DNA from: Ophelia neglecta
Lineage: Eukaryota
Direction: 5' to 3'
Length of the DNA: 64,000 nucleotides
Assembly (NCBI GenBank): GCA_965285935.1
Contig: OZ260663.1
Coordinates: 59,086,001 to 59,150,000 of the forward strand
In this document: positions 7,601-64,000 of the stretch, one piece after another
Numbering within the stretch: the first letter of the stretch is position 1
Layout: every line of letters starts with the position of its first letter
Translations under genes and position numbers: made by a program
The notes under the pieces: model-generated
The model's input: only the letters and a program-made list of their open reading frames with translations
Told to the model about the DNA's origin: nothing
The model's database searches: none

Positions 7601-9857
7601 TTTTATCTGCTTTTCTCTAGTGAGCAGTTGGTAGGGAGTGTCTTGGAAGGCACAACAGTTGGTTTTTTAAAGTTGGTGAACCTTTCCTGGAAGTGGTAGC
7701 TATCTATCTGCATTATAAGCTAGCCCTTTGGCTACTGCCATGAAGATGATGGGAGATCCTAGGGCCAAAGATGTGTGTATTTGAGGCAAAGACACTGGCA
7801 GATTGGCTGGCTGCCTGCTCTGATCCCTGCCGAAGGCATAACAGAACCAAGAGGCAGTGCCTCTGTTATCACAGTTATTAGAAGCTGTAGCCTCTTGCAG
7901 AGGTTATCTTTATAGCTATTTATGTGTGTGGCTCCACTCTGTCCTTGCTTTCACAATATTAAATGCCTACTTGTCCATGACCCACTTTACCAGGCATTGG
8001 CCTGTTTAATAAGGCTTGTGTAGATTTGGAGCATATCCCAACCAGATAAAATGTTATACATTTTAATTTTTATTTGCCCATTGCCATTCCTTAGATGTAC
8101 AAGTGGCTACCGTAATTCACCTAAAGAAGACTAATGAACTTGTGTGCTAAACTGGGGGATGCATTATGTTTTGGAAAAAACAAACTCCCTTAATAATAAA
8201 TTTATCTAAAAATAAAAAATAAAACAGATATGGCCAGATATATGCATTCTTTAGTAGGTATGTGTCTCCTATTAAACCATTTACAGTAGAGTCAATATAG
8301 CATTGTCGGATTGAAGGTGCCCACGATTTACAGCTCATGGTAAACTTCTGAAGCCTCAAAGAATGGCTTCTATTGATTTTGTTCATCTTATGAAGTCTGG
8401 GTCATTGTGCCAGATATCTCAAACAATGAACCAGTGGAGTGCTGGCCATCACTCTCGTACAACCTACAAGCCAGTCAAGTGCTGACAATGAAGCACGGGG
8501 GTTTGGATAATAGTTTGGACAGTTCACTGTATTTTGACTGAAGTTGGTTCCTCCTTCATTCCTACCAACAATCAGGTCTGACAGGGATAGAAACAGGTAG
8601 ATTACAGCCTGGTCTGACTACAGCAGTTGTCTTCTGATCAGTTTTTATAATTCCCTGACTCACATCTGAATCTTGACATGCATGTCTGTAGATTCGGTAG
8701 ATGAATTGAAATGCTATCTTGTTACATGGCCCTTGTACAGTGTTGGGTAGATGGGAGCTGTCTGGTAGATTTTATGAAATGGCAAGAGCATGAGAACAAA
8801 TACCTGGTTGTTATAGTATTTTGTATCTTGTTACATGTACATGTACATTTATGTCTAGTATAAGCATGTAAAATGTCAGCACTAAAACATTGTGTTTTTG
8901 TGCTGGTGAGTGATGCTCTCTGCAGACCTTGTAGCATAATGAGGTTAGCAGTTTTGGCATGAGATCCAAATTAAAGGAGGTGTTGGAATATATAGCCAAC
9001 TGAATAATGAATGAACTTGTACAAATTCCACTACAGAGTGAGGCAGTGAGTGGCTGAATTGTTCATGCCAGGCTACCATTCATCAATGTAAGCCTGACTG
9101 CAGATTAGATTAATACACCACAAAATGTCATGTTGGAGAATTTTAAGGAAAACTTCAGCCCTACATATAAGAATTAAGATCCGCTAAGATAGCCCTGGGA
9201 ACTGGGCAAGGATACCAAACATGCTGTCCCATAGATCTTTATAAATGTATGATAACCCGGCAAGATATCCATTGTGATCCTTATTTATGATCCAGAATGG
9301 TTAAAGCACATTACCCTTGCTCTGCTGCTGAGTTATTGGTATTTTAGACCTAATTTTCTCCTGCTTACTGCAGGTGAATAGTCAGTGTTATTAATGCAAG
9401 TGGCGTAAGAGGCTGAGAAATTATGAAAATGGTTAGCCAAGAGACGAGGGAGTAAATTGACTGGAGTTGCCATTTTCTGCATATAAATTACCACACTTAA
9501 TATGGCACAATTTGGGGTAACATGGAGACAGTCATCAAACCAAATGAATGGCTCTTTTTAGAATTAAATGAGTGCCCGAAATCGCTGTTTGCTCCATGAG
9601 CACTTAAGTACTCAATATCCTGCACTTTTCTATCCAGTTTAAAAAATGTGCATTTACTTTTCCTCATTAAATTGTATTATAGTGGTTAGGACCTTTGTAG
9701 ATAGATGTAATATGCATAAAAGTGTAAATTTCGATCAGGATATTGTTTTGGTTACTACTTGATCCACTGTGATTTTGTAGGAATCCTATGTTATTTCTCA
9801 TTTTAGACAATTCCATTCTTCCTGTGGTCAGCTTTGGTTATTGAATCTACTGTGAGT

Positions 9858-10446
9858 GTGTTATTGGTCCTCTTAGCAGGGCCATATTACTGGTCCTTTC
9901 AGCAGGGCTGTATCAATGGTCCTCTCAGCAGGGCTCTATCAATGGCCCTCTCAGCAGGGCCATGTTACTGGTCCTTTCAGCAGGGCTGTGATACTGGTCC
10001 TCTCAGCAGGGCCATGTTACTGGTCCTCTCAGCAGGGCCATGTTACTGGTCCTTTCAGCAGGGCTGTGATACTGGTCCTCTCAGCAAGGCTGTGTTACTG
10101 GTCCTTTCAGCAGGGCTGTATCAATGGTCCTCTCAGCAGGGCTCTATCAATGGCCCTCTCAGCAGGGCCATGTTACTGGTCCTTTCAGCAGGGCTGTGAT
10201 ACTGGTCCTCTCAGCAGGGCCATGTTACTGGTCCTCTCAGCAGGGCCATGTTACTGGTCTTCTCAGCAGGGCTGTGTTACTGGTCCTTTCAGCAGGGCTG
10301 TGTTACTGGTCCTCTCAGCAGGGCCATGTTACTGGTCCTTTCAGCAGGGCTGTGATACTGGTCCTCTCTCGAAGGCTGTGTTACTGGTCCTTTCAGCAGG
10401 GCTGTATCAATGGTCCTCTCAGCAGGGCTGTGTTGCTGGCCCTCTA
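9858..10446. repeat. 26-bp minisatellite, about 22 copies (GGGCCATGTTACTGGTCCTYTCAGCA)
   Basis: Directly visible tandem array; produces the 26-aa periodic ORFs at 9834-10677. Confidence 0.95.
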
Positions 10447-11454
10447 GGGAAGGCTGAGTCACACCCTGAGTCAGCCCATTGTCCTTGTAGACCCACAGGG
10501 CATGGTGCCCCTAATTCAAGTCATTGCACAGCACCGATAAGCCTCCATCAAGCAATTTCTTACCTAATAAACAATTATACCACTTATGTTACTGCCAGGC
10601 TCATATGTGATTATTTATTTATTTTTGAACTGTCCAAAGGTGAGTTCTCTCATCTATATTTCCTAATTGATTATTAAGGGAGAACAGCTTTAAAGTTTCA
10701 CAGTATCTAATGGCATATTAGTAGTTCTGCTGTTGGTGTGGCTAGTGTTGGTGTCCTCCTTACTGCATGGGCTGTTGTGTAAGTCAAACTAAGTGACTTT
10801 CAACTTGATAAGGGTGTTCAAGGGGACAATGTCTACAGTCTCTTCTTGTTGTTTTGCTTCATCATTGATTGAACAACTAACTAGTGAGGGCTTCATGTGT
10901 AACTGTACAATAATATGTACCAGGAATATTGCAAAATCTTTCACCCCTTTTTTCTAATGTCAACTAATGTGCCAATAAATATCTTATTGTTTTTAATCAT
11001 TATTTCATTGGCTTTGTTAACAGAGAAGTACTGAATGAATGCTAGACTTTAAATATTATCACCTTAATTTCAGCAGTAATACCACTTCCCTTGATGTAAA
11101 ATTCACACTTGCTCTCGGGTGGCCAATAATTACACCACCAGATTCTATCAGCCAAAACAAGCTGGAGTCAAAGGGGTATTTGTTGAACTGGCTTTGCACA
11201 TTTTTACTGTCCAGGAGTCATGTAGTGGTCATTTGGGCAGACAGCCCAAATGTTTAACTTACACAGAGAAGCTTTTTATTACTTGCAACCAAGTCCAGTG
11301 GATAAGCAGTTGACAATTACCAATTATGTGTGGCTTAGATAAAATGACTTTTAAGTTATTAAGGATTCTTTTAATGTCTCTGACAATGCTGCCTGGTACT
11401 AGAATCTAAGTCCTGAATTCTTAGGTGAGTGCTTTAATGACTGCCACTGACTTG

Positions 11455-45281: not shown

Positions 45282-46167
45282 GTAGTTTGGGTTTAGTCCT
45301 GGTACATCAACATGCACTTGAGTTGTATAATCAACAGGTAAATCTAGGGAGAGGCCACAGAAGTCTCCATAGAGGTCTGGGGTAAAGTATACGGGGGAAA
45401 GCTGGAGCTGGAAATATCTACCTCATTTGACAACTGGCTACTTAAAACTAACGTGTAAAGTTATCTTCAAAGTAGTTTTATAGTTAGGTATTAATGTTTA
45501 TGTATCATCAGATCTTGATTTGTTGCTGTTAAGTTTGAATATTATACATCTCATCCAATTACCTAGAGTTCATTCTGCAGCTTAATTTAAGGAAGGTGTG
45601 GTCTGCTGCTTTGTAAGATAATCAATTAATTCTCTGTGATCTAACATGATTTTTAATGCTAAAATATATTAAGCAAATTTCATAGTGAAGAAATTCTGAT
45701 GGTGAATGTTTGATTGAACTCTTCCTTTACACTTGTTTGTAGCAGTAAAGATTTTGATTTGAGTTAACTACACGTTTAATACATGTAATATACCTGAATA
45801 ATGTTTCACTGTGATCTTGTACCATAACCCATGAGGCAAATCTTGACTTTCTTGGTGATGGCCCACTTCTCGATGTATGGTGTAATTAAGTTATCTGTAG
45901 CTTATGGAAGCACTTTAGTTTTACACTAGACCCCTCACTCCCTGTCTCTCTACATATATGTGTATTGTATTGTCCTCCACCAGCAGTCGAAACTCAAGAT
46001 TTGCCTTCAGAGCCACAACATACATTGAAGCCTCGTCATCACATTGTATCTATATAGTAATACTTGTATACATCGGCTATGGTTTCCTCAAAGTTGTTTT
46101 GGTTGCTTTGTTTTTGCCATTAATTTTTCATTTCCTAATTTTTGCTTGTCTCTGTTTCTTGCTCCAG

Positions 46168-46455
46168 CATTACCGCAACCGCCCACAAGTCTAGTTATCT
46201 CTGAGGTCACTGCCACTTCGGTCAAACTGACCTGGAATTCGGGCAATGTTGATCCCGTAGAATCGTACGTCATCCTGTACAAACGTAAATATGCCCCAGG
46301 GGCCACGCATGACGAAATCACTGACATAACCAGCAGTGAGTACACCGTCATGGGGCTCAATGCGTACATGCAATACGAGTTCAAAGTGATAGCGGTCAAT
46401 AACATAGGCCGCGGTATTCCCAGTAACCCTGTAGATGTCACCACCGGAGAGTTGG
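46168..46455 (+). CDS. Lar: LAR RPTP exon, FN3 repeat 1 (ALPQPPTSLVISEVTATSVKLTWNSGNVDPVESY...GRGIPSNPVDVTTGEL)
   Basis: FN3 W/Y/Y pattern, LAR-like TATSxxLTWxSGNxDPVxxY; gctccag| and TTGG|GTTAGT; 288 nt. Confidence 0.97.
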
Positions 46456-49363: not shown

Positions 49364-50804
49364 GTAAGTGTATAGATGAAAGACTTCTAATTACTAGTGG
49401 CTTTGCTAGGCATTGTGCGCTTGCCTAACATTGTGTGGAGTTTTTATATTCACATGTATATGGTAAGTGTAAACTCCGTGGAGAAATACAGGATGTGGCA
49501 GACTTAATTTTAATTGTTGATAAAATAGGCTTTTACTAACAAGTGAATTGTGTTCTGTGATCATCAATGCTGTTAGTATATGATGTGTGTGAAAGGCACT
49601 ACTAGAGCATCTAAATATTTTAGTCCTACCACTGGTGGAACAGATTTTGTCATCACTTGGGTGGAGGGTGTTAGGTAGGAGTGCAGATTTGCCGTTTTTT
49701 CACCTATTGTCATCTTAAAATAGCAGGCAAACTACGACTTCAAGTAGTACAAGTACATAGGACATCCTGGATACCTTTTTTTTTCCTGTGACCTTAAACT
49801 ACGAAATTCTCCCCAGATTTTAATGAGAGCTGATGCAATTTCTTCTTCCTCACTGTTTTTATCATATACATTACCAGACTGGCATATGGGTGGAAGTTTA
49901 GACCTCTGACCAATCTCAATTCTGATCAGCAGGCCATTGATAAGTTATAGCATTTGCCTATGAGCTATCTAAAGGGCTATTCTCAGATAAATATCTTTAT
50001 TACAAACACCAAAAGTCTCAATATAACTGTTATTAGAGACAATTATAAGTCACCCTAGAGTCTGATTTTCTATTTTTCTCATAATGCCATTAATTCCTGA
50101 TCATTGGTCCTCTGCTAGCTGTTACCATACATTAGATAGCCAAGACAGTAAATGAATTATTATTCCACTCATCAGGTGCCTTGATTGTATAAGATAGTCA
50201 GCGTGAAGGTAGTGAATGCTCGTATAGCCTGAGGGTAGATCAGAATATGAATTTACAGAAACAATAATATCACTGCAATTCTTAATAAAACAAAGGTCTG
50301 GTCACTTGTGAAGTTAAAACCTGCAATCAATGTGTGCTGTGATTTGGCAGTTCAGGACATTATTCCTGTGGGCAATTTCTAAGCGAGAAGTGTATGTAGT
50401 CAGAGAGGCCAAAATGGAATTAAGTTTTCTTGTTATGTTGTATGACTGTGGTTGTTCCCTTTGCTTGCGACTAGTATAATTGTAACCACTGTGATGTTGA
50501 CCGTGACAATGGCTGCTAACATTTATGTGTAAAATTGTGCAGGAAGCTACTTGAAAATGAGTTATAAAAAATTCAGTTTTTACAATGTTTTGGAAATTCA
50601 TAATAAGTTTTCTTATAATAAAATATTGTTATTATACTTACCTCATGGGATTAGGATATTCCATCTCTCCATATATATGTATTTTGTATAATTATGTACA
50701 TGAACATGAACATTGTTGCAAATTAATACACATTGACTAACTTTCTGAAGACTTCCAATAACATTGGTTACATGAGTCTGTCCTATCTAAAACATCTGCT
50801 TGCT

Positions 50805-51385
50805 AGACTGTCTGTCAGTAATGTGCTTCTGTCAGTCTTATATCAAGGCTTGCTGTCTTGTCAGTGCCTCACTGTCTGTCAGTGCCTCACTGCCTGTCAG
50901 TGCCTGCTGTCTGTCAGTGCCTCACTGTCTGTCAGTGCCTCACTGCCTGTCAGTGCCTCACTGTCTGTCAGTGCCTCACTGCCTGTCAGTGCCTCACTGC
51001 CTGTCAGTGCCTCACTGTCTGTCAGTGCCTCACTGTGTGTCAGTGCCTTGCTGTCTGTCAGTGCTGTGCAGTCTGTCATTCACAGTGCTGCCTTGTTAGT
51101 GATGTGCTGTCTGCCAGTGATGTGCTGTCTGTCAGTGATGTGCTGCCTTGTCAGTGCTGTGCTGTCTGTCAGCACCATGCTGCCTTGTCAGTGATGTGCT
51201 GCATTGCCAGTTTTGTGCTGTCTGTCAGTGCTGTGCTGTCTGTCAGTGCTGTGCAGTCTGTTAGCACTTTGCTGCCTTGTCAGTGATGTGCTGCATTGCC
51301 AGTGATGTGCTGTCTGTCAGAACTGTGCTGTCTGTCAGTGTTATGCTGTCTTATCAGTACTGTACTGTCTGTCACTGTCCCAGAC
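50805..51385. repeat. 18-bp minisatellite (GTCAGTGCCTCACTGTCT, grading to GTCAGTGATGTGCTGTCT)
   Basis: Directly visible; explains the [18 protein letters not shown] periodic ORFs. Its last 88 nt (51298-51385) recur at 52109-52196. Confidence 0.95.
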
Positions 51386-59008: not shown

Positions 59009-59317
59009 TCCCCAGTGCCCCGCCCCAGAATGTGCGTGGGGTGGCCCTAGACTCTACCAGCATCGAGGTAAGCTGGGAGCCCCCACCCAAGGCCGCCCAG
59101 AATGGTGTCATCTCTGGCTATAAGCTGCTCTACACCGACCAGGCCAGCAACCAGGGTCCTGAGGAGGCCACTGCGCTCACCGTAGGCGCCACTGAGCTTA
59201 CACTCGCCATACGCGAGCTGCAAAAGTGGACGCCCTACAAGATCTGGGTGTCTGCATTCACGCAGGTCGGGGATGGGCCTCTCAGTGATGTCATCGTCGT
59301 CCAGACAGACGAGGACG
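59009..59317 (+). CDS. Lar: LAR RPTP exon, FN3 repeat 4 (VPSAPPQNVRGVALDSTSIEVSWEPP...VGDGPLSDVIVVQTDED)
   Basis: ccatccag| and GACG|GTATGT; 309 nt; LxKWTxY and VGxGPxS..TDED signatures of LAR FN3-4. Confidence 0.97.
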
Positions 59318-62568: not shown

Positions 62569-62766
62569 TTCCGAGCTCCCCGCGGGGTTTGCAGCTGTCA
62601 CTGAACCAGGAGGACCCTCCGTTGGTCCTAGCTACATGGCAGGTCCCTCGAAATACCCACGGCAGCATCCTCAGCTACAAACTTACCTATGGAATACAGG
62701 GAGAGAGTTCAGTGGAGGAACGCAGGCTGGATGAGGAGAAATATAGGTTTACCACAGGATTCCTTG
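62569..62766 (+). CDS. Lar: LAR RPTP exon, FN3 repeat 6 first part (VPSSPRGLQLSLNQEDPPLVLATWQVP...KYRFTTGFL)
   Basis: cctcctgccag| and CTTG|GTTAGT; 198 nt, phase 1-1. Confidence 0.93.
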
Positions 62767-63136: not shown

Positions 63137-63229
63137 AGAAAGGAGCGGTATATGAATTCCGCATTTCTGCCAGGAATTCGGTAGATTTTGGTGAGCAGGC
63201 CGTGGAAACCATTCGGACGCCGGATGGAA
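63137..63229 (+). CDS. Lar: LAR RPTP exon, FN3 repeat 6 second part (EKGAVYEFRISARNSVDFGEQAVETIRTPDG)
   Basis: tatttcag| and GGAA|GTGAGT; 93 nt, phase 1-1; KGAxYxFRxSARNxVxFGE motif. Confidence 0.94.
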
Positions 63230-63828
63230 GTGAGTCTTGCCCTATTTCCACCCCACCGGTGAACTGTAGGGCGCGCCCTCTACTGGGCTGTATAGGTGTC
63301 TCAGCCGTTTGGCAGGAAGGAGGCACATTGCACACATACCCATCTGCATCTTCACCGATGTCGGTCCCCTATTGAGTTGTTTCTTGAGTTTGCTTCATTT
63401 GGCCTAGCATTTGGTTGTATTGAGTTGGTTACACTTTAGTTTGCCCTCCCAGTTTTTGTTTTCTCTATGCGAATACTGCATAGGGAGGAAGGAAGGAGAG
63501 CCAACCACCTCATGGCAAGAAACCTGTAGCAGCAATCAAGTGCCTTACATTACCAGTTTCACACAGAAACAATATGAAAGCACTGCTACAGTCCAGCTCA
63601 CTTATTAGTTGATCTAGCTAGCAGTTCAATGTAATTTTTCCGTTTCACATAATATTTTGATGGTTGTGTGTATTAGAGATGCCATTATTTTGACAACCAT
63701 CACTGAAGTGCCCCAGAGAGCTAATGTTATAAATTTCAACTAGAAAATGCCCAGAGAATTAAAACATTGCCTAATTTTGAGCGGCACTTCAGGACGATAA
63801 ATGGCATGTAATAATATGATATTGTCAT

Positions 63829-63945
63829 GAGGACACCCGCTCCATTCCACCCGGTGGCAAACATGCAATGGCTCCGGCGGTCACTTGGCGGCCAGCCATA
63901 GCCTGTTTGCGGCGGTTGAAGATAGAGCGGGGGGTGACTCGCCTC
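63829..63945 (+). other. Predicted ~115-nt intronic RNA hairpin immediately upstream of the FN3-7 polypyrimidine tract
   Basis: In-register pairs: GCAAACA 63857-63/TGTTTGC 63904-10, GC/GC, ATGGCT 63868-73/AGCCAT 63894-99; outer CCCGCTC 63836-42/GAGCGGG 63925-31 and GAGG/CCTC. Confidence 0.6.
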
Positions 63946-63968
63946 TTGTTTTCTTTTTTCCCCAACAG

Positions 63969-64000
63969 TCCCTAGCGGAGCACCCCAGAACTTCACGGCA
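63969..64000 (+). CDS. Lar: LAR RPTP exon, start of FN3 repeat 7 (IPSGAPQNFTA...), truncated by the window end
   Basis: Long pyrimidine tract ttttcttttttccccaacag|; PSGxPQN FN3 start, in frame with the previous exon. Confidence 0.9.

Follow-up and report, generated by a model that had tools for sequence, protein, structure and literature searches.

LAR-family receptors guide axons and build synapses, and the full receptor differs in its action from soluble or shortened forms. The question raised by a 64,000-nt stretch of the Ophelia neglecta genome (contig OZ260663.1; hereafter, the window) is whether RNA structure within one intron of such a receptor gene bears on the form that is made. A preliminary description of the sequence had placed competing RNA pairings, of the docking/selector kind, in the intron between the FN3-6 and FN3-7 exons. 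Our comparison of relatives indicates that this FN3-6/7 intron is deeply conserved and predicted to be structured, and it is undescribed in the literature searched. An intron of less than 1 kb whose predicted fold has persisted across deep annelid lineages offers a directly testable handle on the choice of LAR form.

The gene and its relatives

The plus strand of the window carries coding sequence for the extracellular half of a receptor tyrosine phosphatase of the LAR type, with Ig and FN3 exons mapping in order, and the phosphatase exons follow within the next 20 kb of the same assembly, downstream of the window. The ordered Ig, FN3 and phosphatase domains and the best matches, which are to LAR, place the gene in the LAR type (type IIa); among full-length matches to the FN3-5 exon, the highest identities are to annelid LARs (Capitella 62%, Ridgeia 61%). 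The intron length given in the preliminary description was confirmed (63230-63968, 739 nt, with GT-AG ends and phase 1), and the stretches quoted there sit at their coordinates and are complementary as written. Its remark that both intron ends are CpG/GC-rich holds insofar as CpG o/e is 0.53 at 63230-63372 and 0.73 at 63822-63968, against 0.24 in the centre and in the whole window. Such values are about what coding exons show here, four of which have 0.39-0.61 and the short exon 6b 1.28, and the ends are therefore not a CpG island. Features of the region are collected in Table 1.

Table 1 Features of the FN3-6/FN3-7 region, in window coordinates.
Feature	Position	Strand	Basis
LAR exon, first part of FN3-6	62569-62766	+	tblastn to Capitella, Lamellibrachia and Pomacea LAR
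LAR exon, second part of FN3-6, ending ...TPDG	63137-63229	+	LAR protein comparison
FN3-6/FN3-7 intron, 739 nt, GT-AG, phase 1	63230-63968	+	Orthologs of 851, 855 and 862 nt
5' splice site GGAA/GTGAGT, A at -1	63226-63235	+	Identical across window and orthologs
Block around CANNTG core, two middle bases variable	63335-63348	+	Four-intron comparison
Stop of intron read-through frame, 48 added codons	63373-63375	+	Sequence; neither length nor sequence of the read-through conserved
TTCTC-ATGC block and candidate internal 3' splice site (AG 63482-63483), pyrimidine tract upstream	63461-63483	+	Conserved; acceptor use putative
Candidate terminal or poison exon, 41 codons then stop	63484-63608	+	No Pfam match, no FN3 likeness, no conserved donor
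Helix P0, 5' strand, closing the domain	63508-63518	+	Forms in isolated-domain MFE of 4/4
Helix P1 (63524-63531 with 63584-63591)	63524-63591	+	Common to window and L069 only
Helix P2 (63658-63667 with 63693-63702)	63658-63702	+	Conserved complementary blocks
Helix P3 (63703-63712 with 63783-63792), adjoining P2 without spacer, with lineage-specific extension pairs	63703-63792	+	Conserved complementary blocks
Helix P0, 3' strand	63822-63832	+	Identical in 4/4 introns
Long irregular hairpin P4 (local hairpin of the preliminary description)	63836-63931	+	Folding against shuffles
Candidate branch point A63937, pyrimidine tract, distal 3' splice site	63935-63968	+	Sequence; branch point putative, from consensus
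FN3-7 LAR exon start, continuing beyond window	63969-64000	+	Pfam fn3

An alignment of FN3-7 exon homologs led to 118 relatives in metagenome contigs; we kept 80, and 42 of these carry both flanking exons; the orthologous introns all come from one metagenome scan. Three loci share intron blocks with the window: L068 (intron of 855 nt), L069 (851 nt) and L073 (862 nt). In a tree of FN3-6/7, L069 groups with Capitella (98/92), and L068 and L073 are close sisters (100/99), so that the four introns represent three lineages; the tree leaves the position of the window among annelid-grade rows unsettled, at 0.66-0.68 substitutions per residue from each of the three. In L068 (3197-3836), the FN3-5 exon, which is a single exon in the window, is split by an extra intron.

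The remaining 39 complete introns divide into group A, with 15, and groups B and C, with 12 each; these groups are likely paralogs, since identical assembly names recur across them, and they include near-duplicate loci. The first 70 nt of the group B introns (L027, L028, L058, L059, L063, L065 and kin) hold two CRE-type palindromes, CACGTG and ETS-type sites, densely placed after the donor, and those of group C (L039, L044, L052, L061, L075 and kin) hold three CCAAT boxes; group A conserves none. We take the names CRE, E-box, ETS and CCAAT to be appropriate for these motifs.

Three predicted nested helices

Exact matches of at least 8 nt common to the four introns occur in five blocks only (63659-63666, 63694-63701, 63703-63710, 63783-63792 and 63822-63832). 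When 10-mers with one mismatch were allowed, we counted six blocks, against a mean of 0.23 and a maximum of 2 in 60 shuffles; this search adds 63507-63517, the 5' strand of helix P0, and a non-collinear match at 63582-63591. Among the neighbouring introns compared, no comparable conserved block was found between lineages at these divergences. The conserved sequences make up six mutually complementary strands in nested order, P0 enclosing P2 and an abutting P3, and these helices (63508-63832) were absent from the preliminary description. The 5' strand of P0 lies at +279 to +359 from the donor, and its 3' strand ends 136-222 nt before the distal acceptor.

Several properties of the blocks point to pairing in the transcript. 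P2 and P3 are paired in 71 of 72 cells, compared with 24-50% when the strands are slid. Nine of the 11 P0 pairs are invariant, and one G-U is retained in all four introns, as a result of which the sense strand is more stable than the antisense by 4.5 kcal/mol in each. The base at the P2/P3 junction varies (A, C, G and G) and is paired in every MFE structure. The P2-P3 segment folds with z-scores of -5.4, -3.7, -1.8 and -3.6 over the four introns, and in the MFE of the isolated domain P0 forms in all four (z -3.7, -1.6, -1.5 and -3.0, weak in L069 at -1.6 and in L068 at -1.5). Against this, P0 has a probability of 0.00-0.08 in whole-intron ensembles, where P2 is displaced in L073 (0.0); forcing P0, P2 and P3 together costs 3.6 kcal/mol in the window. 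Covariation is not significant, with one double change in 18 pairs, a count equalled by 239 of 500 shuffles of these four sequences from three lineages. The P2 loop (63680-63685) is complementary to 63801-63806, a possible pseudoknot present in the window and L069 only; having been found in two of four introns, it was rejected as a universal element.

The domain is missing from 77 of the 80 related loci. An RNA model of its core, run over 430 kb, found only the four training introns, which match by construction, and left the introns of those other loci empty; it also returned two chance-level matches and, on the minus strand, echoes due to self-complementarity (E 0.016 and weaker). At the gathering threshold, Rfam gave no matches in the window, and four sub-threshold matches in L001, L069 and L073 lay off the domain. 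No second copy was found by DNA search of the same assembly, where a 19-nt pattern gave two 1-mismatch 19-mers, about the number expected by chance, and prokaryote genomes and viral contigs held no exact gapped match of the domain. In DNA-like contigs of one sample, possibly that from which the assembly was made, the FN3-6/7 intron had 0 variants compared with 6 and 5 in the flanking introns, a weak difference among the variants listed; no splice joints were seen in the DNA-like contigs of that sample (three runs).

A conserved hairpin and a proposed switch

The local hairpin at the 3' end of the intron, here P4, which the preliminary description had pointed out, is real. Folded alone it reaches -53.6 kcal/mol (z -3.65, none of 200 shuffles as good), and 63820-63950 folds with z -3.21. 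Its inner helices, 63857-63863 with 63904-63910 and 63868-63873 with 63894-63899, have pair probabilities of 0.96-1.0. The 6-bp partner 63894-63899 falls outside the 3' segment that had been assigned to the hairpin. A hairpin of this type, with about 30-36 bp in 90-130 nt, stands before the branch region in all four introns (z -3.7, -5.6, -5.3 and -7.1), that of the window being the most interrupted. Its place and shape are kept, and its sequence is unrelated between the three lineages; L068 and L073 differ by double-sided changes at 5 of 36 predicted pairs. Folding of the whole region lies beyond shuffled controls, with z -4.0, or -2.84 against block shuffles that preserve local composition. 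Of 26 segments scanned, only 63700-63819 and 63820-63939 fall below z -2.2, and the 5' end (63220-63339, z -0.3) is not unusual in structure.

The preliminary description went on to cast the 3' arm of this hairpin as a strand that docks either with the donor or with its local 5' arm and thereby decides inclusion of an exon at 63484, a model that we regard as very improbable. The 3' arm (63920-63942) is the best intron partner of the 18-mer at 63230-63247, at -19.0 kcal/mol (p 0.011 against arm shuffles, before correction), and the local hairpin is real; however, with any 18-mer of the 5' end allowed to pair with the 3' end, a duplex at least as good arises in 99 of 100 shuffled end pairs, the proposed duplex has an ensemble probability of 0.001-0.004 in three folding windows and costs 17 kcal/mol to force, and it is weaker in all three orthologs (-14.8, -11.9 and -10.7). 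Compensatory changes lend no support, the intron start and the 3' arm aligning between lineages only at the donor. The locus has no duplicated exons, and pairing of the donor itself would be expected to block splicing and not to loop out an exon. A self-fold of the 5' region (63257-63263 with 63351-63357), also put forward, is not among the helices with p>0.2, because local hairpins occupy those bases. Pairing of the 3' arm, as a shared strand, with the donor is at chance level and not conserved.

The shared strand, if there is any, is the 5' arm of P4. Its segment 63839-63856 can alternatively pair with the donor region (63218-63235), and in a 771-nt fold the outer stem of P4 loses to this pairing by 17 kcal/mol. 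Among intron segments it ranks first as a partner for the donor region in the window (shuffle p 0.012) and L069 (0.044), and it does not do so in L068 or L073 (p 0.59 and 0.14). What stands of the earlier idea is that RNA structure in the intron probably bears on splicing around AG 63483: the hairpin is positionally conserved, and the structured domain has an internal acceptor-like site ahead of it in each of the four introns. The particular switch is not supported.

Splice signals around the domain

The donor GGAA/GTGAGT occurs in the window, in all 3 polychaete-grade loci, in 12/12 introns of group B and 12/12 of group C, and in 0/15 of group A. Among seven neighbouring donors, that of the FN3-6/7 intron is the only one without G at -1. 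GGAAGT at the donor also reads, on our assumption, as an ETS-like site.

A candidate internal acceptor lies upstream of the domain. In the window, L068, L073 and L069, an AG after a pyrimidine tract stands 24, 17, 17 and 88 nt before P0, and in the window the segment around it (63459-63489) is predicted to form a local hairpin. An internal YGCAG after a T-rich tract is present in 11/12 group B and 9/12 group C introns, a pattern chosen post hoc in sets that contain near-duplicate loci; in group B it is followed by T/I-D-V/I/S codons with synonymous changes. Every internal acceptor-like site runs into a stop, and the tails share no sequence between lineages; beyond the internal AG, the encoded peptides show no conservation (41, 73 and 93 aa, and shorter). 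No conserved internal donor was found in the compared introns. Nor is a poly(A) hexamer conserved, ATTAAA being present in the window only and L069 and L073 having no hexamer. The candidate exon at 63484-63608 has no Pfam match and shares only chance matches of 8-16 nt with the FN3-6b, FN3-7 and FN3-8 exons.

Proteins give a consistent picture of the mature junction. FN6 and FN7 are joined directly in 90 of the 91 scorable proteins (98 in all), the exception being one tick gene model with three extra residues. None of the mollusc or annelid isoforms listed ends or inserts at this junction, though truncated forms could sit in other clusters, and a protein search with exon 6b plus its read-through, a weak search, gave no match. 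An in-frame cassette exon was rejected given these direct joins, the lack of an inserting isoform and the lack of a conserved internal donor. We likewise rejected a conserved read-through tail, its length and frame differing between introns, and a signal-peptide first exon spliced to FN3-7, for which there is no conserved start codon, signal peptide or phase-1 donor. A conserved peptide from an ATG in the 3' strand of P0 was also set aside: resemblance extends to the window and L069 only, and the seemingly synonymous changes after that ATG in L068 and L073 are explained by pairing within P4.

A model for the choice of acceptor

Our data suggest a model in which the predicted fold (P0, P2 and P3 together with P4) tunes the choice between a proximal, stop-containing acceptor and the distal acceptor of FN3-7; we would give it an even chance of being right. 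If P0 and P4 form, about 430 nt of the intron would collapse, and in the window the distal branch point would then lie within about 30 unpaired nt of the proximal AG. With the branch point brought near in this way and the candidate exon tied up, full-length receptor would be made. If instead folding is slow, or if a protein or a small RNA opens the structure, the donor with A at -1 could be spliced to the proximal AG, or the intron could be retained. Either outcome would introduce a stop, giving a secreted Ig1-3/FN3-1-6 ectodomain or a substrate for decay. Opening by such a factor would account for the near-invariance of the helix sequences, and this near-invariance suggests a trans-acting reader; miRNA-gated boxes are described for Nmnat (PMC13092977).

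Alternative explanations

An alternative that we consider less probable, yet worth serious attention, is that an internal promoter occupies the 5' end of the intron, the fold being the 5' leader of a short LAR transcript running from FN3-7 to the phosphatase, or part of a separate non-coding RNA; this would be compatible with a role in splicing. In group B, the first 50 nt contain CRE-type motifs in 11/12 introns, CACGTG in 8/12 and ETS-type motifs in 12/12, and group C carries three to four CCAAT boxes in 12/12, compared with CRE in 0/12 and CCAAT in 4/11 of the next intron. Conservation extends downstream of the B and C motifs and not upstream, GGAA/GTGAGT is fixed in 28/28 non-A sequences, and a CANNTG block, presumably E-box-like, recurs at +94 to +114 in 4/4 introns. 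Precedents in the family are C. elegans ptp-3, with three promoters (PMC4418752; bioRxiv 10.1101/2022.08.11.503694), and a promoter in intron 11 of rat LAR (PMC2674045); short isoforms of mollusc LARs start with new N-termini at FN3-1. The window itself, however, has neither CRE nor CCAAT motifs, and the groups with clear promoter motifs have no three helices. Upstream of FN3-7 there is no conserved ATG, signal peptide or phase-1 donor that would lead into it, and CpG o/e is not island-like. Loss of the domain in one paralog group, with promoter-like motifs in its place in two others, makes the family a natural experiment on the division of function after duplication.

A broader proposal joins this alternative to the splicing model. 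The intron would be an ancient hinge dividing annelid LAR at the level of the gene: a multi-helix RNA of invariant sequence, gated by a ligand or small RNA, would terminate the upstream transcript so that it yields a secreted ectodomain, a promoter overlapping the donor would start the downstream transcript, and the three-helix domain would represent a new class of structured regulatory RNA in lophotrochozoans. We offer this as a speculation that is rather unlikely to hold in full.

It is unlikely, and slightly more so, that P4 and an extended P3 serve as double-stranded substrates for ADAR, Microprocessor or another dsRNA-binding protein by which the pre-mRNA would be edited or cut, with the other helices positioning them. 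The hairpins keep their length of about 30-36 bp over 90-130 nt and their shape, but not their sequence, in 4/4 introns, and the predicted exon-intron duplex of the window contains the fixed adenosines at -1 and -2. Against such a role, the arms have no sequence common to the lineages, Rfam gave only sub-threshold chance matches, the hairpin of the window is the most interrupted, and conservation of the donor duplex does not extend to L068 and L073. The preliminary description had also raised a pre-miRNA. The stem length fits in the orthologs, but the unrelated arms and the absence of an Rfam match make a conserved miRNA unlikely; a lineage-specific miRNA is possible.

It seems to us decidedly unlikely that the domain closed by P0 leaves the lariat as a new, self-contained intronic RNA, be it a stable intronic RNA, a guide RNA or a ribozyme. 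Its near-invariant helices, the abutting P2 and P3, the closing stem and the possible pseudoknot of the window and L069 are what might be expected of one. Catalytic or guide RNAs usually conserve their unpaired cores, and here loops and junctions are not conserved; further, no second copy was found in the same assembly, prokaryote genomes or viral contigs. A known ribozyme, snoRNA, SECIS element or telomerase RNA was rejected, as there is no Rfam match, and, judged by eye against the consensus motifs known to us, there is no hammerhead, HDV-like, C/D, H/ACA, SECIS or telomerase-template motif.

Finally, the blocks could be DNA-level binding sites, as in an enhancer, with inverted pairs arising by accident and the RNA fold irrelevant. 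They are almost invariant, covariation is not significant and the intron contains other motif-like blocks, but three different sequences each occurring exactly twice in nested inverted order, G-U pairs that favour the sense strand, a P2/P3 junction base that is always paired and the double-sided changes in P4 together make this very hard to credit.

Other variation along the LAR gene

The comparison also brought up variation elsewhere in the gene. The FN3-4 exon (59009-59317 in the window) encodes a whole 103-aa domain that is skipped in annotated isoforms of five mollusc genera (P0064, P0167, P0173, P0148 and P0062), and deletion of FN3-4 is reported for rat LAR (PMC2120354); the skipping is possibly a very old alternative event. 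Six short mollusc isoforms (P0159, P0171, P0145, P0144, P0162 and P0158) have a new hydrophobic N-terminus at FN3-1 and no Ig domains, and long RefSeq LAR isoforms of Pomacea and Babylonia omit FN3-1. FN3-1 and the Ig block may be alternatives in molluscs; the FN3-1 exon of the window is at about 46160-46454. Gene models of Capitella, Lottia and Elysia (P0045, P0054 and P0084) jump from FN3-7 to FN3-9, FN3-8 (L001:3051-3349) being either skipped or mispredicted.

Repeats are present in and beyond the introns. Tandem-repeat arrays with long repetitive open frames occupy 9877-10674 and 50791-51283 of the window, within LAR introns. In the same assembly, a CpG-rich satellite (L005-L006, about 59182000-59194000; o/e about 1.5, period ~0.5 kb by match spacing) lies downstream of the end of LAR coding sequence, and stretches of high depth with many loose ends in DNA contigs (L002:8571-8613, 8933-8985 and 9118-9190) are dispersed-repeat fragments in a downstream LAR intron.

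Comparison with known systems

The literature searched, with few subscription journals and no supplements, reports no RNA structure in an annelid or other LAR intron. Within the receptor family, the nearest parallels are rat LAR (PMC2120354, PMC2674045) and C. elegans ptp-3A/B/C (PMC4418752), where secreted or N-terminally short forms arise from introns of the FN3 region, and a retained intron of rat LAR predicts a secreted form (PMC2120354). Rat intron 11, in contrast, holds LASE-c of FN3-5 and does not correspond to FN3-6/7 (PMC2674045). The covered portions of the rat LAR and ptp-3 articles mention no RNA structure in isoform control, and that of PMC8711739 has nothing on secreted isoforms.

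Dscam1, the model behind the preliminary description, resembles the present case in having intronic RNA pairing in a neuronal Ig/FN3 receptor gene, and 63839-63856 has two predicted partners in the window and L069. Its docking/selector arrangement differs in that here there are no duplicated mutually exclusive exons, and the conserved pairs are one-to-one and not one-to-many; lacking a duplicated-exon array, this is not a docking/selector system. In Dscam-type control, exons are repressed by default and pairing relieves the repression (PMC3535345). The locus control region of Dscam1 exon 6 is closer, in that tandem intronic stems shorten the effective distance from donor to acceptor, as is predicted here; unlike that region, the annelid intron has no docking site, selectors or downstream exon cluster, and its stems are nested under a closing helix and nearly invariant (PMC3535345).

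Similar features unite the annelid blocks with the boxes of Drosophila (Nmnat, Atrophin, CG33298; PMC2724269) and with human PCCRs (PMC8052449): both are intronic conserved complementary stretches of at least 9 nt with few G-U pairs and little covariation, and human PCCRs, too, are often without covariation (PMC8052449). Drosophila boxes were defined by at least 9 contiguous complementary nt, at least two G-C pairs and at most one G-U (PMC2724269); in the window, P0 has 11 bp with one G-U, P2 has 9-10 bp and P3 has 10 bp, L069 breaks two P0 pairs, and the sequences are conserved against a diverged intron in 4/4 polychaete-grade introns. The distance to the splice sites exceeds 150 nt for most annelid blocks, whereas the boxes were sought within 150 nt of the intron ends, a limit that was a search setting of that study and not a functional rule (PMC2724269). 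The annelid intron further differs from boxes and PCCRs in having three nested helices and a sequence-variable hairpin instead of one box pair, and from the Drosophila boxes in having no conserved poly(A) signal. In Drosophila, alternative acceptors accompanied by poly(A) signals are overrepresented among introns with boxes, and the Nmnat boxes control an internal terminal exon (PMC2724269); in the annelid intron, too, a candidate alternative acceptor stands before a stop in the same intron. If the splicing model is right, this intron would be among the few RNA-structure controls of splicing described outside arthropods and vertebrates.
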